IMG/VR virus record: IMGVR_UViG_3300002756_000060
Location: 1 to 32,694 of that record
Origin: a virus
Lineage: Duplodnaviria; Heunggongvirae; Uroviricota; Caudoviricetes
Reading direction: 5' to 3' (one strand)
DNA: 32,694 nt
Position numbers and translations under genes: made by a program. Numbering within the stretch: position 1 is the first letter of the stretch; the number at the start of each line of letters is the position of its first letter. Under the pieces are notes generated by a model, which made no database searches, was not told the DNA's origin, and saw only the letters and a program-made list of their open reading frames with translations. Positions 829-22,592 of this stretch are shown one piece after another.

Positions 829-832
<4 letters not shown>
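401..832 (+). CDS. hypothetical protein
   Basis: 143-aa ORF; its stop overlaps the hsdR start (ATGA at 829-832), suggesting translational coupling; no recognisable domain. Confidence 0.45.
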
Positions 833-3960
<3,128 letters not shown>

Positions 3961-4220
3961 TCGTGGCCACAAAAATATTGGTGGCAAAGGCCGAAAATCG
4001 GGCATTCGCTGTGGTTTTCACCGAGGTCTACTTTGCGGATAAAGTGAGCTTTCGCTGGGCACGCGCGAGTGTGCGCTTATCCTAAAATGACTTCGGAGAG
4101 ACTGGGTCGTTTGGAACCGTTCGCTCACTCGGCCTTGTCTGGCGGCCATGGCCCTTCGCCGACGATCATCCGCGCGGAAGACCATCATTGCCGTTTTTTG
4201 AGAATACTACATAATGCACA

Positions 4221-5219
4221 GTGGAGGTGACTTTTTTGGATTCTTACCTGCAGATCGCGCAGACAGTTCTGAGATCGGCCCGCCGCCCTATGGGGGCAAA
4301 GGCCATTCTCGACGTGGCCTATCAAGCGGGAGTGGTGCCCAAGCACTTATACGGAAAGACTCAGCAAAAAACCCTCCAGGCACGGTTGAGCGAGGAAATT
4401 CTTCATCATCGCGAGACATCCCCGTTCTACCGGACCAAGCCAGGGCAGTTTTTCCTGACCGAGTTTCTCGATGCCGATGATGTCCCGGTGGAGTGGAAGA
4501 CGCCCTTTCCCGCCCGTCGTCGGACGCGCGATCTGACGCGTGACAACACGCTGGCCGTGAGGGGGTCATTCCTTGACCGGTGGCGCCGGAGGACGGCGGA
4601 CGCGGACAGTTTCTTCCAAGCGGCGGAGGCCGAGGGTGCGATGGCCTATATGCATCCCAAAGAGATGAGTGCGCAAGGCTACTGCGCCACGTGGACCTTT
4701 GCAATGGTCGTTAAGGACGACTGCACCCTTGCCTATAGGGTTGGGCGCTACCGCGACGATCGCGACAACTACGCCATGCAGCGATCGATCGGCTTCCCCG
4801 GTCCACTTACAGTCGAAGACATGACGCTGTTTTCGCGCGACCGGCTCGGAGCCGAGGACAGCGCCGCGGACGTTCTGATCCAAGATTTGGACCTTTCCTA
4901 TGCGTCCTTCCATGGCCGCGAAAAGCACCTCCCGAAGATCGACCATGTCATGGTCGTGGACGAGGCAGAGTCGCTGAACGTTGTGATCGTGCTGTCGTGG
5001 CAGTGTCCCGAATGGTTCGAGCCGACGACGCGGCGCATGTCGCTCAACGACCCGCACTGGCTCTGCACTTCGATCCGGCATAACGATTTAAATGACTTCG
5101 AACCGTGGAGTTCTAGGATTCTGGCCGCGCGGGCCGCGGATAGGGAGCGCACGACAGTTGGCCACGAAACGGATCACGGAACAGCAAGCGGCCTTTCTCG
5201 TGTCAGAGTTGACGAGTAG
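4221..5219 (+). CDS. HARE-HTH-like DNA-binding domain protein (N-terminal winged-helix; C-terminal ~230 aa of unknown function)
   Basis: N-terminus DSYLQIAQTVLRSARRPMGAKAILDVAYQAGVV...TLQARLSEEILHHRETSPFYRTKPGQFFLTEFL fits the HARE-HTH pattern; GGAGG at 4223-4227 upstream of alternative TTG at 4236, so the exact start (GTG 4221 / TTG 4236) is uncertain. Confidence 0.6.
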   Translation: MEVTFLDSYLQIAQTVLRSARRPMGAKAILDVAYQAGVVPKHLYGKTQQKTLQARLSEEILHHRETSPFYRTKPGQFFLTEFLDADDVPVEWKTPFPARRRTRDLTRDNTLAVRGSFLDRWRRRTADADSFFQAAEAEGAMAYMHPKEMSAQGYCATWTFAMVVKDDCTLAYRVGRYRDDRDNYAMQRSIGFPGPLTVEDMTLFSRDRLGAEDSAADVLIQDLDLSYASFHGREKHLPKIDHVMVVDEAESLNVVIVLSWQCPEWFEPTTRRMSLNDPHWLCTSIRHNDLNDFEPWSSRILAARAADRERTTVGHETDHGTASGLSRVRVDE

Positions 5220-6840
5220 GGAAGATTCTCGCCGTCAGAAGGTCGCTCTCCAAAATCTTAGCCGCCTTTATCGAACCGGCCATCGGTTCGCCCCGGAGAC
5301 TGCGCCGCGCGTTGAGCAGCAGATCGTAGGGCTGACCAACATGAGCCGCGACGAAAAGGTCGTGCGGTGGGGACTGAACACCCTTGCGCAACTTGGCACC
5401 AAGGACAGCGCCGAGAGCGTCGAGTTGGCAATCAAGCGCCACGAAACCAAGCCCGAGATCGTGGCGGCAGGCATCTCGGCCCTAGCCCGCCTGCGCGCGG
5501 GCCAACTGTCCGGCATTGCGGCTTTACGTAGCGTCCCGCCGGAGGTTCAGATGCTCGCGGCTATGCAAACCGTAGATCCCAAGCGGTTAGCCGTCGACGG
5601 GCTCCAAATCGACCTCGATGTGGCCGATCCAGAGATATTGAAGCTGGCTCTGATCGTCGTCGGGCTCGATCGGGATGTGCAGCATCTACTCCATCCCAAG
5701 CACGAAAACGGCGTCATTGTGCGGGAACTCGGGCAACACGACGATCCCATCGTGCGCCAATACGCAGTTTGGGCCGTGATCGAAAATCGTCGACTGTCGA
5801 TCGCCCATCTCGGCATCGATATCAATCGCATCGAAGATCAGCCAGCGAACGTGCAGTCGAAGCTACTGCAACTTGTCTCGTCCTCTCTGCCCGACCTCAA
5901 TCAACGGCATGAAGCAATCTTGCGGGGAGCCGATCTTCCTACAGTCGACGCGCGTGAGGGTCTCGCCAAAGGTCTTCTGCACGCACACTATGACGGCCTT
6001 GCAGAGATAACGCTGGACTGGTTCGATATTGAAGGAAGCGGCCGCGTGAAGTTGCATCTAGCAGAACATTTCGCGCGTTTCGCTGACGACCAGCCAAGTT
6101 ATCGCGTCAAGGCCTTGGAACTCGTCGAGAGCGGCGGCAACCTGCGCGAGCGGGTCCTGCTGGGTGCGGAAGGGACAGCCTTCTTCAGCGACATCAGGAA
6201 AGCGGAAGGGCAAGCATCACTGGGACTCTTTGGTCTCGGGGGAGACGAACAAATGGCACGACTGGAGAAGGCGGTTCGCATCATGAATAGGGAAACTGTG
6301 CTGGTGCTCAATGCGACACCCGACGACTTAGGGCGCATTCGGGCAGACAAGGAGGGCGCGTTGCTTGAGCGCCAATTGGAGACCGTTAAGAACCGGGAGC
6401 GCGATCTTCTCGTCGTTCAAAAGTTCGCGGTCCGCCTGCAGGACATCCAAAAGGAGCTCCTTAACCATCGGCCGAAGATCCTGCACTTCAGCGGGCATGG
6501 TGGCGTCGGCGTGCTGTGTTTTGAGAAGGACGACGGGACAGAGGCCTTGATCGCCGGAGACGTTCTTGCTGAGATTCTGGACGTCTATGGAGAGCTTGAG
6601 TGCCTAGTTCTCCACGCTTGCTACACAGAAAGTGTTGCGCGGGCCTGTGCGAAACACGTTGGCGTCGTAATTGGCTCGACAGATGCTATCGACGACGAAA
6701 CCGCTCCGAAGTTCACCTACGCATTCTATCAGGCCTTGGCGAACGGCCGTCCCTACGAGAACGCATTCAGGGCTGGACAGGTCGAAGTCAGAACCGCTAG
6801 CGAGGTGGCCGCAGCCTGCTACAAGCTGTTCACCCGCTAA
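5092..6840 (+). CDS. HEAT-like repeat protein with C-terminal CHAT (caspase-like) protease domain
   Basis: C-terminus ILHFSGHGG...ECLVLHACYTESVARACAKHVGVVIGSTDAIDDETAPKFTYAFYQALANGRPYENAFRAGQ matches the CHAT His/Cys dyad and FY..L..G tail; N-terminal helical repeats (VVRWGLNTLAQLG, IVRQYAVWAVIEN). Start uncertain: ATG 5092 overlaps the upstream gene by 128 nt; GTG 5200, TTG 5209 and ATG 5341 are alternatives. Confidence 0.7.
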   Translation: MTSNRGVLGFWPRGPRIGSARQLATKRITEQQAAFLVSELTSREDSRRQKVALQNLSRLYRTGHRFAPETAPRVEQQIVGLTNMSRDEKVVRWGLNTLAQLGTKDSAESVELAIKRHETKPEIVAAGISALARLRAGQLSGIAALRSVPPEVQMLAAMQTVDPKRLAVDGLQIDLDVADPEILKLALIVVGLDRDVQHLLHPKHENGVIVRELGQHDDPIVRQYAVWAVIENRRLSIAHLGIDINRIEDQPANVQSKLLQLVSSSLPDLNQRHEAILRGADLPTVDAREGLAKGLLHAHYDGLAEITLDWFDIEGSGRVKLHLAEHFARFADDQPSYRVKALELVESGGNLRERVLLGAEGTAFFSDIRKAEGQASLGLFGLGGDEQMARLEKAVRIMNRETVLVLNATPDDLGRIRADKEGALLERQLETVKNRERDLLVVQKFAVRLQDIQKELLNHRPKILHFSGHGGVGVLCFEKDDGTEALIAGDVLAEILDVYGELECLVLHACYTESVARACAKHVGVVIGSTDAIDDETAPKFTYAFYQALANGRPYENAFRAGQVEVRTASEVAAACYKLFTR

Positions 6841-7136
6841 AAGACTCAGGCTTGTCGATTTCTTCCACTCTGATTTGAGCTGACATGACAGCCGCGTTAT
6901 ATACTTCGCCCGTTCCTAACGACTCATTCTGCTTTTCAGAACGTGGCGGGAAGTAGGTCCAGATCGGATCGAAACGCCAACTTGGAAACCCGAGTTTCCT
7001 TGAACCAAACCTTCGCAGCGCATTCCTTGAAGGTCCCCTTGGGCCGAGAGTGCACCCTCCCATTGGTTCCTCCCTGGCCCCGAACGTATACGGGGGGGCG
7101 CAGCGCGGCAGTTTTCCAGCGTCTGGCCTTTTCACC

Positions 7137-7325
7137 GGGGAATCCAGGCGGAATCCACCTGCCGAGTCATCCTGGAAAAAGCGACTCATTATCAAGGACT
7201 TGCCGAATCACGACCTGGCCAGGGTGGATTCTTTTACCGAATCCAGGGAATCCAGTTCGCGGAAGCCACAGCGCCGGAAGCCAGCCAGCGGAAGCCACCT
7301 GATGGGAAGCCATTGAATCCAGGTG
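7137..7325. repeat. Array of at least 10 short GGAA(T/G)CCA motifs in both orientations
   Basis: ggggaatccagg, cggaatccacc, gggtggattc (inverted), ccgaatccaggg, gggaatccag, cggaagccaca, ccggaagccagcc, gcggaagccacc, gggaagccattg, tgaatccaggtg. Confidence 0.6.
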
Positions 7326-7335
7326 CATTTTTCGT

Positions 7336-7419
7336 TTGACAAAGCTGCCCCCCTTGACTCATACCTTGATAATCGAAGAATGGCGCCCGGAGGAAACTCT
7401 CGCGGGCGTTTTTGTTTTT
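7336..7419 (+). promoter_or_regulatory. Promoter-like TTGACA/TTGACT/GATAAT elements followed by a GC stem (CGCCCG 7384-7389 / CGGGCG 7403-7408) and T-run tttttgttttt; candidate leader attenuator or terminator
   Basis: TTGACA at 7336-7341, TTGACT at 7354-7359, GATAAT at 7368-7373; hairpin plus U-tract; the same arrangement is conserved at 22422-22510. Confidence 0.4.
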
Positions 7420-7505
7420 CCAACATCGCGGACCCTGATGCTGTCGCCGACCGGTGCGGTCGCGCTCTCGCGTCTGTCCGCGTCTCACCACAGCAGAGAG
7501 ACCCC

Positions 7506-8768
7506 ATGGACCTTGTCTTCGCGCCAAGCGAGATCGAGGCGTGGCCGATCGAGCGGCTGCGCCCCTATGCCCGCAATGCCAAGATGCATGGTGAGGACCA
7601 GGTGGCCAAGATCGCCGCCAGCATGGCGAAGTTCGGCTGGACGGTGCCCTGCATGGTGTCCGACGATGGCGAGTTGATTGCCGGGCATGGCCGGGTACTG
7701 GCGGCCGCAATGCTGGGGCTGAAGGATGTGCCGGTGATCCGGCTGGCGCATCTGGACGAGGCCGAGCGGCGGGCCTACCGGATCGCCGACAACAAGCTCA
7801 CGGAACTCGGCGATTGGGACGAGACCGTGCTGCGCGACGAGATCGCGGGGCTGCTGGCCGAGGATTTCGACCTGTCGCTGCTGGGGATCGGCGACGATGA
7901 TCTGGATGCGCTGCTGCGCGACCCCGAAGCGCAGGACGGCGACGGCCCGATCGAGGGCGAGGACGACGTTCCGGAACCGCCGGTCACGCCGGTCTCGGTG
8001 GCGGGCGATCTCTGGCAGCTTGGCGCGCATCGACTGATCTGCGGCGACAGCACTGCGGCGGACGTGGTCGGGCGCCTGCTGGGCGATGTGCGCCCCCTGC
8101 TGATGGTGACCGATCCGCCCTATGGCGTGGAATACGATCCGTCCTGGCGAAACCAGGCGGGCGCCGCCAAGACCAAACGCACCGGCAAGGTGCTCAACGA
8201 TGACCGCGCCGACTGGCGCGAGGCCTGGGCGCTGTTTCCGGGCGACGTCGCCTATGTCTGGCACGGTGCGCTGCATGCCGCCGAGGTGGCGGAGTCGCTG
8301 ATCGTCTCGGGTTTTGCCATCCGCTCGCAGATCATCTGGGCCAAGGACCGGCTGGTGCTCAGCCGAGGCGATTACCACTGGCAGCATGAACCGTGCTGGT
8401 ATGCGGTGCGTACCAAGGGCAAGGGCCACTGGGCCGGCGATCGCAAGCAGACGACGCTGTGGCAAATCGCAAACAAGGATCAGGATGTGGCCACCGTCCA
8501 CGGCACGCAAAAGCCCGTCGAGTGCATGCGCCGCCCGATCCTCAACAACTCGAACGCCGGTCAGGCGGTCTATGAGCCCTTCATGGGATCGGGCACGACG
8601 CTGATCGCGGCGGAAACCACCGAACGGATCTGCTACGGGGTCGAGCTCAACCCGGCCTATGTCGATGTCGCCGTCAAGCGCTGGCAGTCCTTCACCGGCG
8701 CGGAAGCGGTGCTGGCGGACACCGGCGAGAGCTTTGCCAGCCTCAAGGCCAAACGGATGGCTGCATGA
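7506..8768 (+). CDS. ParB-like nuclease domain fused to DNA methyltransferase (beta-class, motif IV DPPY; N6-adenine type predicted)
   Basis: N-terminal ParB-type motif (RPYARNAKMHG...IAGHGRVLAA...YRIADNKLTELG); motif IV LMVTDPPYG; motif I YEPFMGSGTTLIAAE. The ORF is open from 7323 but the start is called at ATG 7506 by alignment with the paralog at 22593. Confidence 0.85.
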   Translation: MDLVFAPSEIEAWPIERLRPYARNAKMHGEDQVAKIAASMAKFGWTVPCMVSDDGELIAGHGRVLAAAMLGLKDVPVIRLAHLDEAERRAYRIADNKLTELGDWDETVLRDEIAGLLAEDFDLSLLGIGDDDLDALLRDPEAQDGDGPIEGEDDVPEPPVTPVSVAGDLWQLGAHRLICGDSTAADVVGRLLGDVRPLLMVTDPPYGVEYDPSWRNQAGAAKTKRTGKVLNDDRADWREAWALFPGDVAYVWHGALHAAEVAESLIVSGFAIRSQIIWAKDRLVLSRGDYHWQHEPCWYAVRTKGKGHWAGDRKQTTLWQIANKDQDVATVHGTQKPVECMRRPILNNSNAGQAVYEPFMGSGTTLIAAETTERICYGVELNPAYVDVAVKRWQSFTGAEAVLADTGESFASLKAKRMAA

Positions 8769-10132
8769 GCATGCATTTGCGTCCCAGCCAGATCGAGTTC
8801 TGGCCGCTGGACCGCCTCAAGCCCTATGCCCGCAACGCCAAGACCCATGACGCCGATCAGGTGGCGCGGATCGCCGCCAGCATGGCCGAGTTCGGCTGGA
8901 CCGTGCCCTGCCTGGTTGGCGACGATGGCGACCTGATCGCGGGCCATGGTCGCGTTCTTGCCGCCGCGCAGCTGGGCCTGGCGGAGGCACCCGTCATCGT
9001 GCTGGGCCATCTGACCGAGGCGCAGCGCCGGGCCTATCGCATCGCCGACAACAAGCTGACCGAGTTGGGCGGCTGGGACGAGGGCCTGCTGCTGGAGGAA
9101 CTGCGGGGGCTTATGGCCGCCGAGTTCGACCTCGGGCTGATCGGCATCCCCGAGGACGAGCTGGATGCCCTGCTGCGCGACGCCGATGACGACAGTGTGC
9201 CCATCGACGACGACACAGCCGATACCATCCCGGAGCCCCCGGCCGAGCCGATCACCCGGCCCGGCGATATCTGGGCGCTGGGCGCGCACCGGCTGATCTG
9301 CGGCGATGCCACCGACGCGGATGTCGTGGCCAGGCTTATGGAGGGCGCGCAGTCGTCGCTGATGTTCACCTCGCCGCCCTACGCCCAGCAGCGCGACTAT
9401 GGCGCGGCCAGGGAGACGGTGGGCGACTGGGACGCGCTGATGCAGGGCGTCTTCGCGGCGGCACCGGTCACCGACGCGGCCCAACTGCTGGTCAATCTCG
9501 GCCTCGTGCATCGCGACGGTGAGTGGCTCCCCTATTGGGAGCGCTGGGTCGAGTGGATGCGCAGCTCTGGCTGGCGGCGCTTCGGCTGGTATGTCTGGGA
9601 TCAGGGGCCGGGCCTGCCCGGCGACTGGAATGGCCGCCTCGCGCCCTCGCACGAGTTCATCTTCCACTTCAACCGCCAACCCCGGAAGCCCAACAAGACG
9701 GTGCCGTCCAAGCACGCGGGCGAAACCTTGGGCGGCGGTGGGCTGCGCGGGGTCAACGGCACCGTCCACGCCAAGCGAGGGGCCGGCAACGCGATCCAGA
9801 GCCATCGCATCCCGGACTCGGTGTTTCGTATCATGCGCCACAAGGGCGGGCTGGGTGCTGCCGGATCGCATCCGGCCGTGTTCCCGGTGGCGCTGGTCGA
9901 GGCCGTGCTGACCGCGTTCAGCGATCCAGGCGACCTGATCTACGAGCCGTTCTGTGGCTCCGGCACGCAGATCGTTGCCGCCGAACGCGCTGGGCGGCGC
10001 TGCTTCGCGATGGAGCTGGATCCGGTCTATTGCGACGTCGCCATGCGGCGATGGGAACTGGCGACGGGGCGGACGGCGCAGTTGGAAAATCGCAACGAGA
10101 CCACCATTGGCAAGGAGACAAAACAGCAATGA
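8765..10132 (+). CDS. ParB-like nuclease domain fused to DNA methyltransferase (beta-class, motif IV SPPY; N4-cytosine type predicted)
   Basis: ParB-type N-terminus (KPYARNAKTHDADQVARIAASMAEFGW...); motif IV LMFTSPPYAQQRDYG; motif I YEPFCGSGTQIVAAE; ATGA overlap with the upstream gene at 8765-8768. Confidence 0.85.
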   Translation: MSMHLRPSQIEFWPLDRLKPYARNAKTHDADQVARIAASMAEFGWTVPCLVGDDGDLIAGHGRVLAAAQLGLAEAPVIVLGHLTEAQRRAYRIADNKLTELGGWDEGLLLEELRGLMAAEFDLGLIGIPEDELDALLRDADDDSVPIDDDTADTIPEPPAEPITRPGDIWALGAHRLICGDATDADVVARLMEGAQSSLMFTSPPYAQQRDYGAARETVGDWDALMQGVFAAAPVTDAAQLLVNLGLVHRDGEWLPYWERWVEWMRSSGWRRFGWYVWDQGPGLPGDWNGRLAPSHEFIFHFNRQPRKPNKTVPSKHAGETLGGGGLRGVNGTVHAKRGAGNAIQSHRIPDSVFRIMRHKGGLGAAGSHPAVFPVALVEAVLTAFSDPGDLIYEPFCGSGTQIVAAERAGRRCFAMELDPVYCDVAMRRWELATGRTAQLENRNETTIGKETKQQ

Positions 10133-10844: not shown

Positions 10845-10853
10845 CGCGCGGGA

Positions 10854-11309
10854 TCAAGCCGTGTCGAGCTTGTACACGGTGCCACGCCCGTCAACTTTCT
10901 CGGCAGTGACGGGCAGGCCCAGCTTCTTCTTGAGCCCGCCCGAGATCAGGCCACGTGCACTATGCGGCTGCCACGAGGTCGCCTCGACAATCTCGGCGAT
11001 GGATGCGCCCTCGGGCCGCTGAATGAGCGCGATGATCTGCGCCTGCTTCGTGCCCGAGCGGATGGCGACGGGTTTTGCGGTGTCCGCAGCTTCGGGCGTC
11101 GGTGCGACATCGGGCTTGGGCTTTCCCTTCCGCGCGCTGGCGACAGCGCTGACCACCACCGGCTCGATCCCGATGGCCTCCAGCCCGGCCTCGGTGGCGA
11201 TCAGCGTGGTGCCATGACCGTCACCGGTCTCGCGCCAGAGCGGCTCGCCGCGGCGGCTGTCGGCATCGACCTCCTCGATCCAGCCATTGGTGATCATGCG
11301 AGTGAACAC
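10854..11309 (-). CDS. DUF3489-like protein, probably a 5'-truncated copy
   Basis: Aligns with the C-terminal ~150 aa of the 193-aa paralog at 26938-27519 (WRETGDGHGTTLIATEAGL...SIAEIVEATSW...GRGTVYKL); start abuts a divergent gene at 11312 with no promoter space. Confidence 0.5.
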   Translation of the reverse strand: MFTRMITNGWIEEVDADSRRGEPLWRETGDGHGTTLIATEAGLEAIGIEPVVVSAVASARKGKPKPDVAPTPEAADTAKPVAIRSGTKQAQIIALIQRPEGASIAEIVEATSWQPHSARGLISGGLKKKLGLPVTAEKVDGRGTVYKLDTA

Positions 11310-11311
11310 CG

Positions 11312-12058
11312 ATGAGCCTGCATCCCGGTACGGATCGCTACAACCCGGCTGGGAACAGCGACTTCACCCGCAAGGCGGAGGCGCTGGCGCTGGGCATCCC
11401 CAACTGGTCGACACCGAAGGCGACAGACGGCGCGAAGGGTGGGCCGGGCCAGAGCTATGGCTCGGGCGGGACGCCACCCCTGCCCGCGCAGGCGGCACAA
11501 TGGCAGACGCCGGTGGCCGACGACCAGATGGATCGGCTGCGTGGCAAGATCAACAGCCGGGGCGAGCCGAAGCTATCGGCACAGGCGCTGCAATGGCCGA
11601 CCCCGGCGGCGCAGAACTGGAAGGGGAGCAGCCCGGCCAGCGTGACGCGGGCGGATGGCAAGAGCCGGATGGATATCCTGCATTACCGGGCGGAGCAGGG
11701 CTTCACCCACCCGGCCCCGGCGATCATGCGGCATGGGCGGCAGTGCTCGCGACACGCCCCGATCTCACGCCCGCTGTGGGCTTCGATGATTGCCTCGCAT
11801 GGGCGCGGCGCATGTCGGCGGCTCCTGAAGGGCCGCTCACGGCGGCGGCTGAACCCGCTCTTCGTCGGATGGTTGATGGGCTGGCCCATCGGTCACGCGC
11901 TCTGCGCCTGCTCGGCAACGGAGTTCATCCTCTGGCAGCAGCGCATGCGTGGCGCGCTCTCGCAGCTGCCCATGGCCTCGGGCCCGTGGATCTGGCGGCC
12001 ATCGGACGAGGCCCAGCGCCCCGCGCAGATGACGCTGTTTGAGGTGTGGTCTGAATGA
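11312..12058 (+). CDS. hypothetical protein with three W-x-TP motifs
   Basis: 248-aa ORF; NWSTPKATDGAKGG, QWQTPVADDQ, QWPTPAAQNWKGSS; stop overlaps the next ATG (ATGA at 12055-12058). Confidence 0.5.
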   Translation: MSLHPGTDRYNPAGNSDFTRKAEALALGIPNWSTPKATDGAKGGPGQSYGSGGTPPLPAQAAQWQTPVADDQMDRLRGKINSRGEPKLSAQALQWPTPAAQNWKGSSPASVTRADGKSRMDILHYRAEQGFTHPAPAIMRHGRQCSRHAPISRPLWASMIASHGRGACRRLLKGRSRRRLNPLFVGWLMGWPIGHALCACSATEFILWQQRMRGALSQLPMASGPWIWRPSDEAQRPAQMTLFEVWSE

Positions 12059-12717
12059 CGATACAAGGAAAGATCGGGCGGCCAGGCGGCCAAAAAACCA
12101 AACGCGCGCTGGGCGTGCAGGCGGCGCTGGAATGGGCCTTTGGCGTGGAAAAGGCACAGCTGGAACTGCCCCTACCGAAGGGCGTGGCCGAGGAAGGCTT
12201 CGGCTTTGGGCTCGAATACGTGCTGCTGCAACGCGCCATACTTGGCTGCAAGATCGACGGCGGCCAACACAAGTTGGGTGGCTATGTGCACGTGGACGCC
12301 GAGGTGATCGCCGCCACCGTCGCGGGCATGCCCGACACCTTGGGTGGTAAGCGCATGGCGATCCGGGTCGCGGAACTGGCACGCGCCGGGCTGACCCCGG
12401 ACTGGATGCCCAGGGCCGTGCCGCGCTGCGTGCCCGTCGATATCAAGCGCAACCGGCATGGTGATCGCGCGGTCAGCGTCGTGGTCGGCACCGCCCGCGC
12501 GCTGATCAGCGGCAAGTGGCGCATCGTCGAGGTCCGCGCCTGCCCCGTCACCTTCACCCCAACCCCACACCAGATCGACGCCGCCCGCCAAGCCTATGAC
12601 GACTGGTGGCAGGCACTGGACTGGGTACGGGATGGGCTTATCGCGGGCGACATGCTGCGGGAGATTGATGTGACAGGGGCGATGCCGAGCGTGCGGCCGT
12701 GGGCTGCAAAGCCTTGA
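12055..12717 (+). CDS. hypothetical protein (220 aa)
   Basis: Translationally coupled to the upstream gene; no recognisable motif. Confidence 0.5.
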   Translation: MTIQGKIGRPGGQKTKRALGVQAALEWAFGVEKAQLELPLPKGVAEEGFGFGLEYVLLQRAILGCKIDGGQHKLGGYVHVDAEVIAATVAGMPDTLGGKRMAIRVAELARAGLTPDWMPRAVPRCVPVDIKRNRHGDRAVSVVVGTARALISGKWRIVEVRACPVTFTPTPHQIDAARQAYDDWWQALDWVRDGLIAGDMLREIDVTGAMPSVRPWAAKP

Positions 12718-12778: not shown

Positions 12779-15652
12779 ATGTTCACCGCTTACCATGGCA
12801 AATATACCGCATATGATCTTACGAAGCTGGCGCCGCCCGGCTCGGACGATCAGTTGTCAATGTCGTTGTTCGATGCATCGGTTGATCTCAATCCTCATCA
12901 GATTGAGGCCGCGATGTTCGCGCTTCAATCGCCGCTGGCTGAAGGCGCGATACTTGCGGATGAGGTCGGCCTCGGCAAAACCATCGAGGCAGGCATTGTC
13001 CTTTGCCAGAAATGGGCTGAGCGAAAACGGAAACTAATCATCATCTGCCCAGCGGCCATTCGACAGCAGTGGGCTGCAGAACTGACGAACAAGTTCAATC
13101 TTCCCGCAGTCGTCATTGACGCTCGGACCTATCGACAGATGAAGATGGAAGGCATTCCATTCCCTTTGTCACAGAAGCGGATCGTCGTGCTATCCTATCA
13201 TTATGCTGCAAAGCTTCAGGATGAGCTTCGGCAAGTCGATTGGGATCTGGTTGTTATCGACGAAGCGCACAAGCTTCGTAACTCGTACCGACCCAGCAAT
13301 CGCATCGGGCAAGCTCTTCAACGAGCAGTCGAAGGCCGCAAAAAGCTCCTGCTGACGGCTACTCCCCTCCAAAACAGCTTGATGGAGATATTCGGGCTTA
13401 CGAACTTCATTGATCCAAACATTTTCGGCGATGCCAACAGCTTCCGGTCGAAGTATGTGAATGCCGGTGGCGATCTGCCCGAGCTTCGCGCAAGGCTCGC
13501 GGATTTCTGCAAGCGCACGCTTCGGAAGCAGGTTCTCGAGTATGTCAAATATACTCAGCGCCGTGCCATCACGCAGCCATTCTCGCCGGCGGAGAACGAG
13601 CAGGCGCTGTATGACGGCATTACGCGCTTCCTACAACGAGAGGACACCTATGCAATACCCTCTCAACAGCGCCATCTAACCGTTCTTATCCTGCGGAAGC
13701 TTCTCGCTTCGTCATCACAGGCCATCGCAGGGACGCTTGAGACCCTACGCGCCCGCTTGGTAGCCCTGCAGAAAGGGGAACCGGTAAAGGATGATCTGGC
13801 GGAGGTGATTTCATTCGAGAACGAGCTCGAAGAAGAAATTCTCGACGAATGGGATGATGACGATGCGCAAGACCCCACAGGGGCCGAGCAAATCGACTTC
13901 GCCAAGCTTCGCCTGGAAATCGACGATATTTCAGGTCTGATCCAGCTTGCACATTCGATCCAGATCGATACTAAGTCCAAAGCGCTGCTACAGGCTCTCG
14001 AGATAGGCTTTTCGGAGCAGGAGCGGATGGGCGCACAGAGAAAAGCCCTGATCTTCACAGAGTCGCGCCGCACCCAAGACTATCTCCGCGATTTCCTCGC
14101 GCGCTACGGTTACGCCAATCAAATTGTGACCTTCAGTGGCACTAATTCCGACCGCAAGGCACAGGAAATTTACGAGCGCTGGCTTACCGATCCGAAGAGC
14201 GCCGAGCAGATTACAGGATCGCGCGCCATCGATGTTCGTGCTGCACTGATAGAAGAATTCCGCGACAATGCCTCGATCATGATCGCAACCGAGGCCGCCG
14301 CCGAGGGTGTCAACCTGCAATTCTGCTCGCAGGTCATCAACTACGACCTTCCGTGGAACCCGCAGAGGATCGAACAGCGCATCGGACGCTGCCATCGCTA
14401 TGGGCAGACGCATGATGTGATCGTCGTGAACTTCCTGAACGAACGCAACGATGCAGATAAACGGGTTCACGCGCTTCTAACCGAGAAGTTCAATCTGTTC
14501 GATGGTGTATTTGGGGCTTCAGACGAGGTCTTGGGAACGATTGAGTCCGGCGTCGACTTCGAAAAGCGCATTCTGGCGATTTACCAGGACTGCCGCACTC
14601 CGGAGGCCATCGCCGCAGCTTTTGATGAACTTCAGACCCAGCTCGAGGAACAAATTCGGAGCCGAATGGAGGATACAAGGCGGGCCCTGCTGGAGAACTT
14701 CGACGAGGATGTCCACGCCCGCCTGAAGCTGCGCCTCGCTGACGCCCGCGAACAGTTGGACCGTGTCGGGCGCCGGTTTTGGGATCTGACCACTGCTATC
14801 CTCGCCGACAAGGCCAAATTCGATGAACCAAATCTGGCCTTCGACCTTCTGGCCCCGCCGACCCGCGACCTGCGACCGGGCCGCTATCACCTGATCTCGC
14901 GGAACTCGGCCGCAGACCCGGCCAAGAACGAACACGGCTATTTCCTCTACCGGCTGTCGCACCCTCTTGGCGAGCATGTCATTGAATCGGCCAAGGCCGC
15001 TGACACGCCAGTGGCCGAATTGCGGTTCGATGTGACCAATCACCCCACACGCGTGGCCATCGTCGAGGCGCTGAAAGGGCGGCGCGGCTGGCTGACGCTG
15101 CGCAAACTTGCGGTGACGACCTTCGAGACCGAGGAATACCTGCTATTCTCGGGCATCGACGACAATGGTCGCTCCATCGACCACGAAGCCTGCGCCAAGC
15201 TGTTCTCGGTCGGTGCTGGCGTTCACCCCATCGACATGCCCGCCCCTGCCATCGCCGACCTCCTTCAGGCTGAGGCCGAGCAGCATGCCAAAGCCACCTT
15301 GAACCGGTCGCTGGATGCCAACAACAAGCACTTTGCCTCGGCCCGTGAAAGGCTGGAGCGCTGGGCTGAGGACAAGGTCTACGCGGCAGAGAAGGCGCTG
15401 AAGGACACCAAGGAACAGATCAAGGGGGTGCGTCGCGAGGCGCGGGCAGCTACCACACTCGAAGAAGAAGCCGCCATCCAAGCCAAACTGCAGGAACTGG
15501 AACGTCGCCAGCGCAAGCAGCGGCAGGAAATCTTCAACCAGGAAGACGAAGTGGCCGACAAGCGGGACGAGTTGATCGCCAACCTTCAAAAGCGGCTCAG
15601 CCGTGGCCACTCGGTTGAATCGCTGTTTACGGTCCGCTGGGCCGTCGTGTAG
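12779..15652 (+). CDS. SNF2-family (SF2) helicase/ATPase
   Basis: Motif I LADEVGLGKTIEAG; motif II LVVIDEAHKLRN; motif III LLLTATPLQNSLMEIFGL; C-terminal helicase motifs ALIFTESRRT, IMIATEAAAEGVNLQ, DLPWNPQRIEQRIGRCHRYGQ; AT-richer codon usage than neighbours. Confidence 0.9.
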   Translation: MFTAYHGKYTAYDLTKLAPPGSDDQLSMSLFDASVDLNPHQIEAAMFALQSPLAEGAILADEVGLGKTIEAGIVLCQKWAERKRKLIIICPAAIRQQWAAELTNKFNLPAVVIDARTYRQMKMEGIPFPLSQKRIVVLSYHYAAKLQDELRQVDWDLVVIDEAHKLRNSYRPSNRIGQALQRAVEGRKKLLLTATPLQNSLMEIFGLTNFIDPNIFGDANSFRSKYVNAGGDLPELRARLADFCKRTLRKQVLEYVKYTQRRAITQPFSPAENEQALYDGITRFLQREDTYAIPSQQRHLTVLILRKLLASSSQAIAGTLETLRARLVALQKGEPVKDDLAEVISFENELEEEILDEWDDDDAQDPTGAEQIDFAKLRLEIDDISGLIQLAHSIQIDTKSKALLQALEIGFSEQERMGAQRKALIFTESRRTQDYLRDFLARYGYANQIVTFSGTNSDRKAQEIYERWLTDPKSAEQITGSRAIDVRAALIEEFRDNASIMIATEAAAEGVNLQFCSQVINYDLPWNPQRIEQRIGRCHRYGQTHDVIVVNFLNERNDADKRVHALLTEKFNLFDGVFGASDEVLGTIESGVDFEKRILAIYQDCRTPEAIAAAFDELQTQLEEQIRSRMEDTRRALLENFDEDVHARLKLRLADAREQLDRVGRRFWDLTTAILADKAKFDEPNLAFDLLAPPTRDLRPGRYHLISRNSAADPAKNEHGYFLYRLSHPLGEHVIESAKAADTPVAELRFDVTNHPTRVAIVEALKGRRGWLTLRKLAVTTFETEEYLLFSGIDDNGRSIDHEACAKLFSVGAGVHPIDMPAPAIADLLQAEAEQHAKATLNRSLDANNKHFASARERLERWAEDKVYAAEKALKDTKEQIKGVRREARAATTLEEEAAIQAKLQELERRQRKQRQEIFNQEDEVADKRDELIANLQKRLSRGHSVESLFTVRWAVV

Positions 15653-15685
15653 ACCAGCCGAGTAACATCAAGGAAAACAAGAACA

Positions 15686-18600
15686 ATGAGCAATTTTGAC
15701 GCCCTCGTTGCCAAGCTGCGCGAAATCTTCCAGATCGACCGGCCTGACCTCGATTTTGGCGTCTACCGTATCCTCAACGCCCGCGCGGGGGAAATCGAGG
15801 ATTACCTGTCCAAGCGTCTGAAGGCGCGGGTGGCCGAAGCACTGGCTGCCGGTGCTGCGGCCAATACCGAAACGCTGAAGGCCGCGATTGAGAAAGCGCG
15901 CGAAGCTGCTGAGGCCGCAGGGTACAATTCAGACGAAGCTCCGAGAGTTCTGAGCCTCCAGAAGGAACTTGCAGCCGCCAGCGGGGCCACGTCGGAGCAT
16001 GAAAATCAGGTCTTCTCGCACCTGTTGACCTTCTTCTCGCGCTACTACGACAAGGGCGATTTCATCAGCCAGCGCCGGTACAAGGGTGATACCTATGCCA
16101 TCCCCTATTCCGGGGAAGAGGTCGTGCTGCACTGGGCGAACCGCGATCAGTATTACATCAAAAGCGGAGAATCCTTCTCGAACTTCAGCTTCAAGCTGGA
16201 TGACGGTCGACTTGTGCATTTCCGCCTTGTCGCTGCCGATACGGCCAAAGACAACCGCAAGGATAACGACAAGGAGCGCCGCTTCGTTCTGGCCACCGAG
16301 CGCACGGTCACGCGCCTTGACGAGGAGGGCGAGGGTTTTGAAGAAACCATCCGTCCGATCGAGGAAGAGGATGGCGCGCTGGTCATCCGGTTCGACTTTG
16401 CAGCACAGCCCAAAGGGACCAAGCAAGAAAAACTGGTTGAGGCGGCGGTGGAAACCATTCTGGACAGCGAGACTTTCAAATCGAGATGGCTGGAACTGAC
16501 CAACCGCGCGCCGACGGAAAAGAAACCGCAGCGCACCTTGCTGGAAAAGCACCTGACGACCTACACGCAAAAGAACACCGCCGATTACTTCATTCACAAG
16601 GATCTGGATGGTTTTCTGCGGCGCGAACTGGATTTCTACATCAAGAACGAGGTGATGAACCTGGACGATGTGCAGGAGGCCGGGGCCTTTGCCGCCATCG
16701 AAAGAAACCTACGGATGATCCAATGCCTGCGGGCCATCGCTCTGGACCTGATTACCTTTCTGGCCAGCATCGAGAATCTCCAGAAAAAGCTATGGCTGAA
16801 AAAGAAATTCGTGGTGGCGGCGCAGTATTGCGTGACGCTGGACCGGGTGCCGGAGGCGCTTTACCCGGCTATCGCGGCGAACCCCGCGCAATGGGCGCAG
16901 TGGCATGATCTGGGGATGCGGGCATCCGCGGCGCCGGGGACGGTGGAGGATCTGAAAGCCGCGCCCTTCCTGATGGTGGACACCGCGCTCTTTGATGCGG
17001 GTTTCCGGGCTGACCTGTTGAAGGCGATCCCCGATCTGGATGCTAGCCTCGACGGGCTGCTGGTTCATGGGGACAATTTTCAGGCGCTGAACCTTTTGCA
17101 GGATCGATACCGGGAAAAGGTCAAATCAATCTATATCGACCCGCCTTACAACACTGACGCAGGACCGATCAGTTACAAGAACGGCTACCGGAGTTCGTCG
17201 TGGGTTGCCATGATGCACGACCGCGTGAAACTCGGGCGTGAGCTATTGCCTCTCGACGGGTTGCTCACCGCCACGATCGATGACTATCAGTACCGTGAAT
17301 TGCACTTCGCCATTGAAGAGGTTTTTGGCGCTCAAAACCTCGCAGGTACCGTTGTAATCCGAATGAACCCGTCTGGCCGCCCGCTCCCACAAGGCTTCGC
17401 ACAGTCCCACGAATACGCAATCGTCGCGAAGCGGTCAGACTTAGCTCAGATCGAGAACTTACCGAGAAGCGAGAAGCAGAACGCCAGATATAAGCACCGC
17501 GATGACGACGGTCAGATGTACATGTGGGAACTGTTCAGAAAGCGCGGATCGAATTCCGAAAGAACTGACCGGCCTTCGCTGTATTATCCGATCTATCTCC
17601 GGGGTGAGGACTTTCGGGTTCCCCGAATGACTTATGATCCTGATCGCAAGGATTGGGATATTCATGAAGAACCGGATACCGACGAAAGCGTCATCTACCC
17701 TATTGACGACAACGGAACCTTGCGCACGTGGCGTGGCTCACCGGATGATTTGATCGATAATCCAAGCAACTATCGTGTGAAGATCGAGGACAGCAAAGTC
17801 ACGGTCTACTACAAGTTTCGCCCCAACTCTGAGGGTGTGCTTCCGCTCACCAACTGGATCGATGCCAAATACTCCGCAACGGAGCATGGAACGGGATATC
17901 TCAAGAACTTCTTTTCGGAATACAACGTTTTCTCCTATCCGAAGTCGATCTACGCGGTTGAAGACTGCATCAGGGTTGGTGGCGCAACGGCCAATGCAAC
18001 CGTCCTCGACTATTTTGCAGGATCGGGCACGACTGGACACGCAGTCATAAACTTGAACCGGTCCGACCAAGGGTCTCGAAAGTACATCTTGGCCGAGCAA
18101 GGCGCTTACTTCGAAACTGTCATTAAGCCACGCTTAAAGAAGGCAGTGTTTTCTGCTGATTGGTCAGAGGGTAAACCCACCGCCCCCGAAACCGGCATCA
18201 GCCATGCCTTCAAGGTACTCAAGATCGAGGGCTATGAGGACACGCTGAACAATCTTGATCTGAAGCGTTCGGAGGCGCAGGCCAGTCTTCTGGAACGGTT
18301 CAGCGCCGACAAGCGCGACGACTATTTGATGCGCTACATGCTGGATGTCGAGGGACGCGGCTCGCTCCTGTCCATCTCGGATTTCCGCAAGCCCTTTGAC
18401 TACTCGCTCAAGGTCGCCGTCGACAGCGCCGGGGCCTGGGAGGAGCGCAAGGTCGATCTGGTCGAGACCTTCAACTACCTGATCGGCCTGACCGTCCGCC
18501 ATATCGACATCCAGCTTCGCCAAGGCTTCGCCACGGTCGAGGGCTGGTTGCCAACGGGTGAGCGGACCCTGATCCTGTGGCGCGACTGCGATAAAATCGG

Positions 18601-18805
18601 CTATGAGGAATTGACGCGCCTGTGCGACAAACTGGCGATTAACCCGGCCGACAGCGAATACGACGTGGTCTACATCAACGGCGACCACAATATCCCCTCG
18701 GTGGTGGAAACGACCGAGGAAGAGGGCAGCGTTATCAAGAAGCTGATGCTGCGCCAGATCGAACCCGCCTTCCTCGATGCGATGTTCAACGTGGATGACG
18801 TCTGA
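15686..18805 (+). CDS. Type III Mod-like beta-class DNA methyltransferase with ~480-aa N-terminal extension
   Basis: LLVHGDNFQALNLLQDRYREKVKSIYIDPPYNT (motif IV) precedes VLDYFAGSGTTGHAV (motif I); AAGGAAA Shine-Dalgarno at 15670-15676; 1039 aa. Confidence 0.85.
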   Translation: MSNFDALVAKLREIFQIDRPDLDFGVYRILNARAGEIEDYLSKRLKARVAEALAAGAAANTETLKAAIEKAREAAEAAGYNSDEAPRVLSLQKELAAASGATSEHENQVFSHLLTFFSRYYDKGDFISQRRYKGDTYAIPYSGEEVVLHWANRDQYYIKSGESFSNFSFKLDDGRLVHFRLVAADTAKDNRKDNDKERRFVLATERTVTRLDEEGEGFEETIRPIEEEDGALVIRFDFAAQPKGTKQEKLVEAAVETILDSETFKSRWLELTNRAPTEKKPQRTLLEKHLTTYTQKNTADYFIHKDLDGFLRRELDFYIKNEVMNLDDVQEAGAFAAIERNLRMIQCLRAIALDLITFLASIENLQKKLWLKKKFVVAAQYCVTLDRVPEALYPAIAANPAQWAQWHDLGMRASAAPGTVEDLKAAPFLMVDTALFDAGFRADLLKAIPDLDASLDGLLVHGDNFQALNLLQDRYREKVKSIYIDPPYNTDAGPISYKNGYRSSSWVAMMHDRVKLGRELLPLDGLLTATIDDYQYRELHFAIEEVFGAQNLAGTVVIRMNPSGRPLPQGFAQSHEYAIVAKRSDLAQIENLPRSEKQNARYKHRDDDGQMYMWELFRKRGSNSERTDRPSLYYPIYLRGEDFRVPRMTYDPDRKDWDIHEEPDTDESVIYPIDDNGTLRTWRGSPDDLIDNPSNYRVKIEDSKVTVYYKFRPNSEGVLPLTNWIDAKYSATEHGTGYLKNFFSEYNVFSYPKSIYAVEDCIRVGGATANATVLDYFAGSGTTGHAVINLNRSDQGSRKYILAEQGAYFETVIKPRLKKAVFSADWSEGKPTAPETGISHAFKVLKIEGYEDTLNNLDLKRSEAQASLLERFSADKRDDYLMRYMLDVEGRGSLLSISDFRKPFDYSLKVAVDSAGAWEERKVDLVETFNYLIGLTVRHIDIQLRQGFATVEGWLPTGERTLILWRDCDKIGYEELTRLCDKLAINPADSEYDVVYINGDHNIPSVVETTEEEGSVIKKLMLRQIEPAFLDAMFNVDDV

Positions 18806-21800: not shown

Positions 21801-22122
21801 CTATCCTGACTTCCTGCTCTGGCTGGTGGACGACAAAACTGGCAAGCAGTGGCTATCATTCATCGATCCTAAGGGCATTCGAAACCTGAACATTTCGGAC
21901 CCGAAGTTTGGCTTGTATAGGGAAATCAAGCAGATCGAGAACCAGCTGGGTGACGGCATGATCAGCCTAAACGCCTTCATCCTGTCCGTGACGACCTTCA
22001 GCGACCTGCTAAATGTCACAGGCTCTACCACGAAATCGGAGCTCGAGGACCGAAATGTCCTATTCATGGGCGACGGGGGGCCGACATATCTTGATAAGCT
22101 GCTGGCCAGAGCCCTCACCTGA
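18805..22122 (+). CDS. Res-like ATPase/helicase with candidate C-terminal PD-(D/E)xK nuclease
   Basis: Walker A FWNATGSGKTLLLHV; Walker B-type LVLVDEGHRG; C-terminal YPDFLLWL...FIDPKG; start overlaps the Mod-like stop (TGATG), so co-operonic; 1105 aa. Confidence 0.75.
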   Translation: MARAAKKKRTFHHELVLNRWMLSHFYGDGLMTLKSRLGDDRFEGIDDDGQTKFFHELTRNLFNMDRVTEAELRRYDLNIVAYWQKITHRRNAATGELLTMKYFQYLSLLFTEIYLDWYFNRRQDLLDGLNAQMAAYRKEDGAEPFRDYSADDLNKLAFWNATGSGKTLLLHVNILQYLHYFQAGNGNLFPDRIILLTPNEGLSRQHLEEFRESGINAHVFDKNQTGSLFKGWVDVIEVTKLADEMGDKTVATGAFEGNNLVLVDEGHRGTGSAGGVWMARRAALVKGGFAFEYSATFSQSVAKGATVAKAEEDILKAKAKRLFDKTLKQLDDTERAQLQLTNEDRARARIDGIREAYAKAVLIDYSYKYFYADGYGKESLILNLDDKGYDNHGDLYFTACLLSFYQQLWLWDTHRDKIRDFNIEKPLWVFVGNTVAGEDSDILEVIKFLAWFLNHPSEATTWIADLVADKARLLDPKGNDVFAGRFSPLMQRDAATIYDDILKRLFNADARQRLKLVNLKNSKGELALRVGSFDPFGLINIGDDSGFFKNAEDSSDFDTEADDFGTGLFGTINQKDSKLNVLIGSRKFTEGWSSWRVSTMGLLNMGQGEGSQIIQLFGRGVRLKGRGMSLKRSLPAERPKGTHMERLETLNIFGVRANYMATFKDYLKEEGITPSDEIIQLDFPTRTNLPSGTRLKTLKLKDGYKDNQIKGFKRVHYPTLYEVPAEFAGKIKPPHVLLDLYPRVEAITTTANATAGAPDKRNRGKLSKAAIACFDWDAVFTAVQEYKLLKSWSNLKVDRERLYQFCLGDNSWYTLLIPQAELEVSDFSDVLRQQDIMLQLLTDYTDRFYQGLKAAYEGKFYDVAPVTEDSGSIIKLYQFEIENTDVGLEYKAKLEVLSALVASGKIGEASNWNAPHMVAISFGQHLYYPLLSPIKDAVVPLKMRPLAIGEPSEVQFVEDVMAYYDSPSGKERLKGFSLYLLRNADNRAKGLGFALAGNFYPDFLLWLVDDKTGKQWLSFIDPKGIRNLNISDPKFGLYREIKQIENQLGDGMISLNAFILSVTTFSDLLNVTGSTTKSELEDRNVLFMGDGGPTYLDKLLARALT

Positions 22123-22124
22123 GC

Positions 22125-22150
22125 CGGGGCAAGTTGAGCTCCCCCCCGGC
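22125..22150 (+). terminator. Weak GC hairpin immediately after the Res-like gene stop
   Basis: GCCGGGG (22125-22131) pairs with CCCCGGC about 13 nt downstream; no clear U-tract. Confidence 0.2.
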
Positions 22151-22225
22151 ATGGTTCCTCCCGGGCGCGATCCGTATACGGGGGGGCTGAGCGCGGCATT
22201 TCGCTAGCGACTGGCTTTTTCACCG

Positions 22226-22427
22226 GGGAATCCACTTGGAAGCCACCCCGGCGGCCCTGCCGGAAATTGTGACTCAATTTCAGAACCTTACCCGACAGCA
22301 TCGGTGGCCAGGGTGGATTCCTTTTGGAAGCCAGGGAATCCACTTGGTGGGTTCTTTTGGCCAGAAAAGCCACCCTCAGGCCAGATCGGCAGAACACCTT
22401 GATTCCAAGCCACAAAATGGATTGACA
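22226..22427. repeat. Array of GGAA(T/G)CCA motifs in both orientations (paralog of 7137-7325)
   Basis: gggaatccacttggaagccacc occurs twice; ggtggccagggtggattcc (inverted); gattccaagccac. Confidence 0.6.
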
Positions 22428-22510: not shown

Positions 22511-22592
22511 ATCGCGGACCCTGACACAGCAACCGGCGTTTGCCGGGGCTTGCATTGGTCTGTCCGCCCTGCCCCGGATCCGAACCCCACCC

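Follow-up and report, generated by a model that had tools for sequence, protein, structure and literature searches.

We analyzed a 32,694-nucleotide (nt) stretch of Caudoviricetes DNA (IMG/VR record IMGVR_UViG_3300002756_000060, positions 1 to 32,694; the whole stretch is called the window here), in which two similar leaders, A and B, each lie directly upstream of two overlapping genes for ParB-domain N6/N4 DNA methyltransferases. In each leader, promoter-like boxes beginning with TTGACA are followed by a GC-rich hairpin (hairpin 1) and a T-tract, and the most likely role of the element is to gate transcription where a variable set of anti-phage defense genes adjoins the phage DNA-methylase operon. 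The reading that we favor, and hold tentatively, is that hairpin 1 and its U-tract are a putative intrinsic terminator within the operon promoter region, which would be passed by factor-dependent read-through. What the sequence data show is how the element is built, how well it is conserved, that it is linked to the operon, and that it stands at the boundary of the defense cargo.

Hairpin 1 and its T-tract resemble an intrinsic terminator

Hairpin 1 of copy A lies at positions 7383-7409 of the plus strand, where GCGCCCG (7383-7389) can pair with CGGGCGT (7403-7409) around an inner GAGG/CUCU helix, and its stem begins 47 nt past TTGACA. The T-tract TTTTGTTTTTC (7410-7420, with TTTTGTTTTT at 7410-7419) follows directly 3′ of the hairpin. 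In copy B, hairpin 1 (22469-22496, plus strand) is followed by the T-tract TTTTGCTTT at 22497-22505. The predicted folding energies were −22.3 kcal/mol (z = −4.1) for copy A and −23.6 kcal/mol (z = −3.45) for copy B, and none of 200 shuffled sequences folded as well. The stem-loop has 7 plus 3 to 4 base pairs, a single bulge, and a loop of 4 to 5 nt, as an intrinsic terminator would, and together with the T-tract it lies downstream of the promoter-like boxes. When both strands of the whole 32.7-kb window were ranked for hairpins with a T-rich tail, copy B came first and copy A third; a simple terminator scan overlooked both, owing to its limits on bulges and loops. An earlier annotation made from the letters of the window (the sequence-only reading) had described a TTGACA element and, about 45 nt farther on, a GC-rich stem with a T-tract some 90 nt short of the first start codon. 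This layout was confirmed in both copies, where the T-tract ends ∼90 nt before the ATG at 7506 (copy A) or 22593 (copy B).

Pairing of the stem was then compared among relatives of the leader. In 94 diverse sequences, 99% of the stem cells were paired, versus only 40 to 66% for slid registers. Compensatory double changes, which the sequence-only reading had named as a check, were present in 5 cells versus 0.3 expected from shuffles, and all three measures of double change exceeded every one of 500 shuffles. Almost all one-sided changes in the stem were G-U wobbles (39 cells), and unpaired cells numbered only 9. Because G-U wobbles would be mismatches on the other strand, this pattern points to an RNA made from the plus strand. 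The T-tract consensus TTTyGTTTT was kept at 80 to 99%, in line with the U-tract of a Rho-independent terminator, and it is one-sided, the opposite strand having no comparable T-rich tail. The loop of hairpin 1 varied across relatives and the stems were constant. Taken together, the retained pairing, the free loop, and the one-sided T-tract suggest that a hairpin followed by a U-tract in plus-strand RNA serves as an intrinsic terminator, and we infer that termination would occur at this site. RNAalifold applied to a MAFFT alignment recovered hairpin 1 alone, since hairpin 2, a second hairpin farther downstream, was misaligned.

The leader is conserved and linked to the methyltransferase operon

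More than 595 relatives of the ParB-methyltransferases were found in IMG/VR. A 19-base leader pattern that left the hairpin unconstrained matched 119 stretches in species-representative genomes, nearly all of them from Rhodobacteraceae or Paracoccaceae; cultured strains carrying the element include Antarctobacter heliothermus DSM 11445, Rhodobacter sp. SW2, Roseobacter sp. MED193, and Seohaeicola saemankumensis. A profile search yielded 176 leaders, corresponding to 160 distinct 105-nt cores with one common layout. An 85-nt core was nearly invariant among ∼155 distinct sequences from Rhodobacterales prophages, the leader consensus being TTGACA-N12-TTGACn-N6-TTGATCATCGAAGAATTGCGCCCGGAGGA-loop-CCTCGCGGGCGyTTTyGTTTTCC-CACATCGCGGATCC. 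The core at 7336-7432 is far more conserved than the wobble positions of the methyltransferase gene. The sequence-only reading had assigned this conservation to the RNA or DNA rather than to a protein, and our comparison of the two copies bears it out: their loops differ by one base, and further indels follow downstream. When leaders were located by the DNA pattern alone, 91 of 93 were followed by the start of a ParB-methyltransferase ∼170 nt past TTGACA.

Searches of Rfam returned nothing meaningful, either for the whole window at the gathering threshold or for 6990-7520 at E values up to 5, and none of 50,697 records of cultured phages was matched by the leader in blastn. In the literature, we found comparator papers only and none describing this leader. 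A promoter-proximal terminator in a phage regulatory region is a known type of element.

The tie to the operon bears on a proposal of the sequence-only reading that the element might be a small RNA gene. The functional product would then be a transcript of ∼30 to 50 nt running from the promoter to the T-tract and consisting mostly of hairpin 1 with its loop-proximal GGAGGA motif, comparable to lambda oop RNA or to 6S-like RNAs. The leader does have promoter-like boxes of its own and a strong terminator, and the stem sequence is conserved beyond the needs of pairing. However, the element did not occur independently of the ParB-methyltransferase operon (91 of 93 leaders), its conservation continues unbroken across the T-tract and the structured 5′ untranslated region (5′UTR) into the gene, and neither an Rfam family nor a target was identified. 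We therefore consider a small RNA gene quite improbable.

Promoter-like boxes and candidate transcription starts

The leader contains three TTGAY boxes at fixed spacing on the plus strand. Box 1 is a perfect −35-type hexamer, TTGACA (7336-7341), which is exact in 143 of 155 distinct relatives and in which T7336, T7337, and A7339 are invariant. Between it and box 2 (TTGACn from 7354; CTTGAC at 7353-7358) lies the spacer AAGCTGCCCCCC (7342-7353, consensus nnnCTnnCCCC), whose 12-nt length is constant in 151 of the 155 sequences and whose C7345, T7346, and C-run are each conserved at 90% at least. This spacer could be a candidate loading or binding site between the −35 and −10 elements. Box 3, TTGATAAT, occupies 7366-7373, and CCTTGATAAT spans 7364-7373.

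Several hexamers resemble a −10 element. CATACC (7360-7365; TACCCC in most relatives) is a weak candidate with an 18-nt spacer from TTGACA; its second base, A7361, is present in 100% of the 155 sequences, and its sixth is C in 89% and never T. The hexamer at 7368-7373, GATAAT here and GATCAT in most relatives, has A at position 2 and T at position 6 in 100% of the same sequences, making it the most strictly conserved −10-like element and the sole hexamer in which both diagnostic bases are invariant. A further −10-like hexamer, AAGAAT (7376-7381), begins 16 nt past box 2, and the combination TTGACT-16-AAGAAT was returned by a consensus promoter scan; 99% of the 155 sequences have A at its position 2, and 88% have T and 10% have G at its position 6. 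From box 2 through AAGAAT to the stem, the spacing was constant in all 155 sequences, whereas the distance between TTGACA and box 2 shifted by 1 to 2 nt in 4 of them. The boxes of copy B (22422-22467, plus strand), namely, TTGACA (22422-22427), CTTGAC (22439-22444), TTGATTGT (22452-22459, with a −10-like GATTGT), and AAGAGT (22462-22467), align with those of copy A at 79% identity without gaps. Within the window, the motif TTGACAN3CTN2CCCCCTTGAC was confined to the two leaders (0.02 expected); the region before the terminase gene, among others, had none.

Three start registers can be drawn from these boxes. In register A, TTGACA and TAcccc, separated by 18 nt, would start transcription at ∼7372 and place hairpin 1 at +12 to +38 of the transcript. 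Register B, with TTGACn and AAGAAT separated by 16 nt, would start at ∼7388-7390, inside the 5′ arm, and its own transcript would lack the terminator. Register C pairs a weak CTGCCC with GATCAT and would start at ∼7380, such that the whole hairpin is transcribed. The mechanism would depend on which of the three is used.

If register B is the one used, hairpin 1 would be an insulator terminator overlapped by the operon promoter, TTGACn(7354)-16-AAGAAT(7376-7381), with its start at ∼7388-7390 within the 5′ arm. The hairpin would then block read-through from the constitutively expressed cargo as well as any weak start at TTGACA, and the operon's own promoter would be unattenuated. This AAGAAT register is the sole sigma-70-type match of the consensus scan, its A2 (99%) and T6 (88%) are well kept, and box 2, AAGAAT, and the stem keep the same spacing in all 155 sequences, whereas the TTGACA-to-box 2 distance varies in 4. 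A GC-rich stretch right after the −10 would also account for the conservation of the 5′ arm sequence beyond pairing. However, T6 is replaced by G or C in 12% of relatives, which nonetheless retain the hairpin and the boxes; copy B carries AAGAGT and fails the scan; and it is left unexplained why TTGACA is perfect and why A7361 and the A and T of GATCAT are invariant. We regard this insulator as the main rival of the favored reading, less likely than it; the position of the cargo, described below, also bears on it.

By eye, the repeats were also read as sites for CtrA (TTAA-N7-TTAA), alphaproteobacterial LexA (GTTC-N7-GTTC), FNR, sigma-32, sigma-54, or DnaA, and all of these misfit in spacing or key bases. 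We note that Aurantimonas phage AmM-1 (locus L264), a distant alphaproteobacterial phage whose methyltransferase is 48% identical, carries at L264 positions 2385-2430 three tandem copies of GGTTGACCG and another TTGAC directly 5′ of its ParB-methyltransferase gene. Repeated TTGAC boxes may thus be a wider feature of such operons.

The leader is part of a 450-nt block with an octamer array and a second hairpin

Leaders A and B can be aligned, with indels, over ∼450 nt. The conserved noncoding block of copy A spans 7054-7505; conservation sets in at ∼7054 and runs unbroken through the T-tract and the 5′UTR into the gene. Its upstream part (7054-7335, plus strand), which is conserved in 131 distinct sequences, contains octamers at 7139-7312, plus TGAATCCA at 7313-7320 and a T-rich stretch before TTGACA. 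The corresponding part of block B (22136-22421, plus strand) aligns with it and has its octamers at 22227-22342.

The octamer GGAAKCCA has 12 matches in the window versus 2.55 expected, and all of them are in the leaders (7 in copy A and 5 in copy B). They are mostly direct repeats ∼14 to 15 nt apart, with one inverted pair, TGGATTC-N7-GAATCCA, at 7225-7245. In the relatives, the density of GGAAKCCA is 19.7 per kb over the 300 nt preceding TTGACA versus 0.34 per kb elsewhere, a 58-fold difference; most of these copies lie in direct orientation between about −200 and −47, and no second cluster was found within 10 kb. The T-version of the octamer contains GANTC, the CcrM-type methylation site. 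The array is probably an operator for a regulator of the leader promoter.

An array of this kind could alternatively mean that the element works as DNA, with the boxes, the inverted repeat, and the octamers all being bound by protein in an iteron-type replication origin or enhancer (as in P4 ori/crr), a partition-like site, or a recombination site at the border of the hotspot. The array is dense and unique, with 6 to 7 octamers in direct and inverted orientation, the stem sequence is invariant, the element borders a region where genes are often exchanged, and the tandem GGTTGACCG repeats of phage AmM-1 stand at the equivalent place. Yet plus-strand RNA is indicated by the one-sided T-tract and by the G-U wobbles, each of which would become an A-C mismatch on the other strand, and hairpin 2 covaries. 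Moreover, unlike ori/crr pairs, the element has no second octamer cluster within 10 kb, and the terminase region has a separate AT-rich intergenic stretch. A DNA-level function is therefore improbable in our view.

Hairpin 2 lies in the 5′UTR, between the T-tract and the start codon. In copy A (7427-7482, plus strand), it has three tiers, an outer GCGGAC/GUCCGC, a middle GAUGC/GCGUC, and a variable inner stem, and folds at −31 kcal/mol (z = −3.15); in copy B (22514-22567, plus strand), it has the same three-tier shape and folds at −26.4 kcal/mol (z = −1.73). The outer stem has the consensus GCGGAy/rUCCGC. The inner stems of the relatives include CGACCG/CGGUCG, CCGGC/GCCGG, GCUGGC/GCCAGC, and CCCCAU/AUGGGG, with the shape retained. 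When hairpin 2 was tested sequence by sequence, its halves paired at −16.6 kcal/mol with their own partners versus −14.4 kcal/mol with foreign ones (P = 3.5e-4), showing that they covary. A role in RNA stability, processing, or translation control is possible. No structure was seen at the start of the block (z = +0.5), and the upstream block folds no better than shuffles. An all-against-all screen for long-range pairing in a 580-nt alignment was dominated by pairs between G-runs and pyrimidines and was discarded.

The sequence-only reading had also proposed an attenuator controlling methyltransferase expression. In its broad sense, a terminator gating the methyltransferase operon, this agrees with our best reading. 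In the classical sense, a riboswitch, T-box, leader peptide, or thermosensor would act in cis through alternative RNA folds, and we found no support for an alternative structure, a leader peptide, or a ligand. A terminator in the leader of a biosynthetic-type operon is the usual signature of such attenuators, and the 3′ strand of hairpin 2 (GUCCGC) is able to pair with the 3′ arm of hairpin 1. That sole alternative partner, however, lies downstream of the terminator and would be made too late to prevent termination. A nearby start would leave at most ∼12 nt before the stem (47 nt counted from the −35), no room for an aptamer or an antiterminator helix, and the upstream block shows no folding in excess of shuffles. 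No Rfam match was obtained even at E values up to 5, and indels break every open reading frame (ORF) between the two copies and among relatives. We consider a classical attenuator very improbable.

In a few relatives, a degenerate second unit of promoter, hairpin, and T-tract was seen ∼370 to 400 nt farther upstream, where it immediately precedes the conserved block (L175, 1293-1397; L123, 3695-3799; L097, 6262-6366; L041, ∼2440-2502), and faint remnants of such a unit, CCTTGAACCAAACCTT, precede copy A at 6998-7013. This suggests that the block may have arisen through tandem duplication of the promoter-hairpin-T-tract unit. As a working part of the mechanism, the upstream copy was rejected: it is recognizable in only 4 to 8 of 126 loci and was taken as a vestigial duplication.

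The block is the downstream edge of a defense gene hotspot

Upstream of both copies lie co-oriented defense genes. The cargo before copy A (829-6840) comprises a Type I restriction enzyme, a HARE-HTH protein, and a CHAT protein, and that before copy B (12779-22122) comprises a DrmD-like SNF2 protein, a Type III methyltransferase, and a Type III restriction enzyme. In the related loci (L001-L261), the genes immediately upstream of the block vary, and 13 loci have Type I restriction subunits; further cargo that recurs, named from sequence by eye only, includes UvrD-like helicase, AIPR-like, exonuclease-BRCT-like, and BREX-PglX-like genes. The cargo is always on the same strand as the operon and ends 4 to 100 nt short of the block. 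In copy B, the block starts only 14 nt past the stop codon of the Type III restriction gene, and no other strong terminator was found there in the terminator ranking of the window.

Clustering of conserved ORFs was used to define the conserved genes of the related loci. The last conserved backbone gene before the cargo encodes a 220-amino-acid (aa) protein with no assigned function (phrog_9306), and the homologue in the window is at 12055-12717; 2583 homologues of the protein exist. The distance from phrog_9306 to the leader ranges from 1.08 kb to >10 kb and the length of the cargo from 0.8 kb to >10 kb. Upstream of phrog_9306 are, in order, genes for an integrase, a 90-aa HTH_17 protein, a VRR-NUC nuclease, an HTH_36 protein, and a C5 methyltransferase. 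The leader block is the fixed downstream edge of a hotspot of co-oriented defense cargo.

The location of the block relative to the cargo is relevant to the insulator as well. Co-oriented cargo without a terminator of its own and an unstructured block start (z = +0.5) are what an insulator would have to deal with; however, an insulator would be better placed at the start of the block, before the array, than 330 nt inside it. For the gated terminator, the same observations mean that transcription from the cargo would reach the gate, nothing before it being expected to stop the polymerase. The 450-nt block, the unterminated co-oriented cargo, and the promoter register that starts within the stem are all additions to the sequence-only reading.

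We also observed, in Paracoccus methylovorus (CP070371.1; L262), a phrog_9306 gene just after the type IV secretion genes TraG, TrbB, TrbC, and VirB3, with a FitA/PIN toxin-antitoxin pair, a Type I restriction system with a Fic protein, and DUF6119 downstream of it. The phrog_9306 gene and the hotspot may thus also be found in or beside conjugative elements.

Comparison with known antitermination systems

We compared the leader with phage and phage-derived systems in which a terminator is overcome by a factor. In the lambdoid PR′-qut-tR′ regions on which Q acts (lambda, 82, and 21), the terminator is farther away: lambda tR′ lies at +194, whereas the leader terminator here would begin only ∼4 to 12 nt past the predicted start. 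The operon here also encodes methyltransferases rather than lysis or head proteins, and the host is alphaproteobacterial. No Q-family protein (Pfam Phage_antitermQ types) was found among the scanned proteins, which were those of the window ORFs, of the conserved genes to ∼5 kb upstream of phrog_9306, and of two ORFs each upstream of the leader in L014 and L034, with coverage of the phage genome reaching to the portal. The likenesses are a −35 box followed by repeated promoter-like hexamers, a −10-like element whose A and T, essential in the Q systems, would lie at or just past the predicted start, a conserved stretch inside the putative promoter, and a close intrinsic terminator, which would yield a short RNA unless the polymerase is modified (defining elements in PMC9371919).

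Both Q and AlpA need a promoter binding element and a −10-like pause element, in which A and T are essential, to bypass a downstream intrinsic terminator (PMC9371919, PMC7969949). AlpA binds between −35 and −10, requires a sigma-dependent pause, and blocks hairpin formation, and the pause element of PalpB is CACGAT at −1 to +5 (PMC7969949, PMC9371919). The AlpA-controlled PalpB-tB region of Pseudomonas aeruginosa resembles the leader in having a small operon behind a leader with an intrinsic terminator, and, counted from the predicted start, the invariant GATCAT here would span about −4 to +4. The 90-aa protein of the prophage family, like AlpA, consists of an N-terminal tail and a C-terminal helix-turn-helix (HTH) of the same clan. 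It differs in matching HTH_17/excisionase rather than Phage_AlpA or any AlpA chain in the PDB, and its gene adjoins the integrase gene, where an excisionase is expected.

GafZ has the same antitermination role in an alphaproteobacterial (Caulobacter) gene transfer agent (PMC11150451). Like the proposed gate, GafYZ concerns phage-derived alphaproteobacterial genes, couples promoter activation with antitermination, and has a putative binding element between −35 and −10 (PMC11150451). Its terminator is unlike the 27-nt leader hairpin, consisting of three 150-bp repeats after the first gene. General protein scans turned up no named regulator family of this kind, and no search was aimed at GafY or GafZ. 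Finally, the terminators at moron or cargo boundaries likewise separate accessory genes expressed in the lysogen, here defense cargo, from backbone genes; in our case, in contrast, the terminator belongs to the backbone and lies 330 nt inside a regulatory block, past promoter-like boxes.

A gated terminator as the favored reading

According to the gated-terminator reading, hairpin 1 and its U-tract would be a Rho-independent terminator within a fixed regulatory region of the ParB-methyltransferase operon in temperate Rhodobacterales phages. The adjacent promoter would use the −35 TTGACA with either a weak −10 around A7361 or GATCAT as the −10, with a start at ∼7371-7380. The terminator would halt polymerases from this promoter and from the co-oriented cargo upstream. 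The full hairpin would be transcribed within 10 to 40 nt and most polymerases would stop at the U-tract, leaving a transcript of ∼30 to 50 nt from the adjacent promoter. The operon would be switched on once the polymerase becomes terminator resistant; the strictly conserved spacer may serve as the loading site of a factor, and the −10-like hexamers, in which A2 and T6 are invariant and which would lie at or just past the start, may impose a sigma-dependent pause. Read-through transcripts would carry the structured 5′UTR with hairpin 2, and the GGAAKCCA array would be bound by a regulator of the leader promoter.

A more specific version, which we consider speculative and unlikely, is that the leader would be the cis half of an antitermination switch specific to Rhodobacterales phages, in which a factor that is neither Q nor AlpA would load at TTGACA-CTGCCCCC-TTGAC-GATCAT, with the array as operator and the block as hotspot anchor. 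The phrog_9306 protein and the 90-aa HTH protein may be candidates for such a factor.

Several observations weigh against a factor-gated terminator. Plain sigma-70 scoring favors register B, which gave the only match in the consensus scan, although its T6 is missing in 12% of relatives and the AAGAGT of copy B fails the scan; register A has a poor −10 (TACCCC), in which position 6 is never T. The stem of hairpin 1 is largely invariant rather than covarying, and most of its pairs are uninformative either way. No protein in the scan matched Q or AlpA in Pfam, NCBIfam, or the PDB. As an AlpA, the 90-aa HTH_17 protein encoded beside the integrase gave only weak matches, to P2 C and lambda excisionase, and was rejected; the phrog_9306 homologue (12055-12717) was likewise rejected as a Q analogue, having no Pfam, NCBIfam, or PDB match, and its AlphaFold model was unusable (predicted local distance difference test score, 41.6). 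The short transcript and the read-through are predictions, and we infer the transcription start, the termination event, and the existence and identity of the factor.

Operon and prophage context

The window is prophage DNA, with genes for a lambda-type large terminase (GpA), a portal protein, and an S49 protease downstream of copy B. The methyltransferase genes of copy A (7506-8768 and 8765-10132, overlapping, plus strand) matched N6_N4_Mtase in Pfam and DNA methyltransferase and ParB-like entries in PHROGs; those of copy B (22593-23855 and 23852-25219, plus strand) were assigned by Pfam and correspond to called genes in the related locus L200. The nearest ParB-methyltransferases of cultured phages are <60% identical. 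For a CcrM-like specificity, an idea taken from the GANTC-rich array, the PDB gave matches of DpnA type only, and we treat it as no more than a possibility. Past the methyltransferases, small genes are followed by a minus-strand block (DUF3489, DUF6900) and then the terminase operon. Because the minus-strand block separates the terminase operon, the leader would control a short methyltransferase operon without structural genes.

The region at 10850-12717 is a junction between two related prophages. In it, a truncated DUF3489 homologue (minus strand, ending at ∼11297) abuts a 5′-truncated C5 DNA methyltransferase gene (11290-11994). Copies A and B would therefore derive from two related prophages joined by deletion or recombination. 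Judged by this gene content, copy A sits in a prophage remnant, though leader A and its methyltransferase genes are intact. An NYN-domain gene (26026-26712) follows DUF7220 in copy B and is absent from copy A and from the near-identical contig L201; this spot may be a second small site of gene gain and loss within the operon. Between the minus-strand block and a putative small terminase gene, the divergent intergenic stretch at 29415-29553 is unusually AT rich and is likely the site of divergent promoters, a cos site, or both.

Implications

The interest of the element rests on its exceptional conservation, the unique octamer array, the covarying hairpin 2, and the fixed position at the edge of the hotspot. 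The block is a sharp noncoding landmark that brackets the hotspot together with the phrog_9306 gene, and this anchor pair could be used to harvest defense systems from hundreds of Rhodobacterales prophages. If the leader is an insulator and a promoter only, it would be ordinary phage wiring, though unusually conserved. If factor-dependent read-through does take place, the leader would exemplify antitermination close to a promoter in alphaproteobacterial phages, and it would show how a temperate phage can silence its own methyltransferase operon while cargo expressed in the lysogen is transcribed toward that operon.

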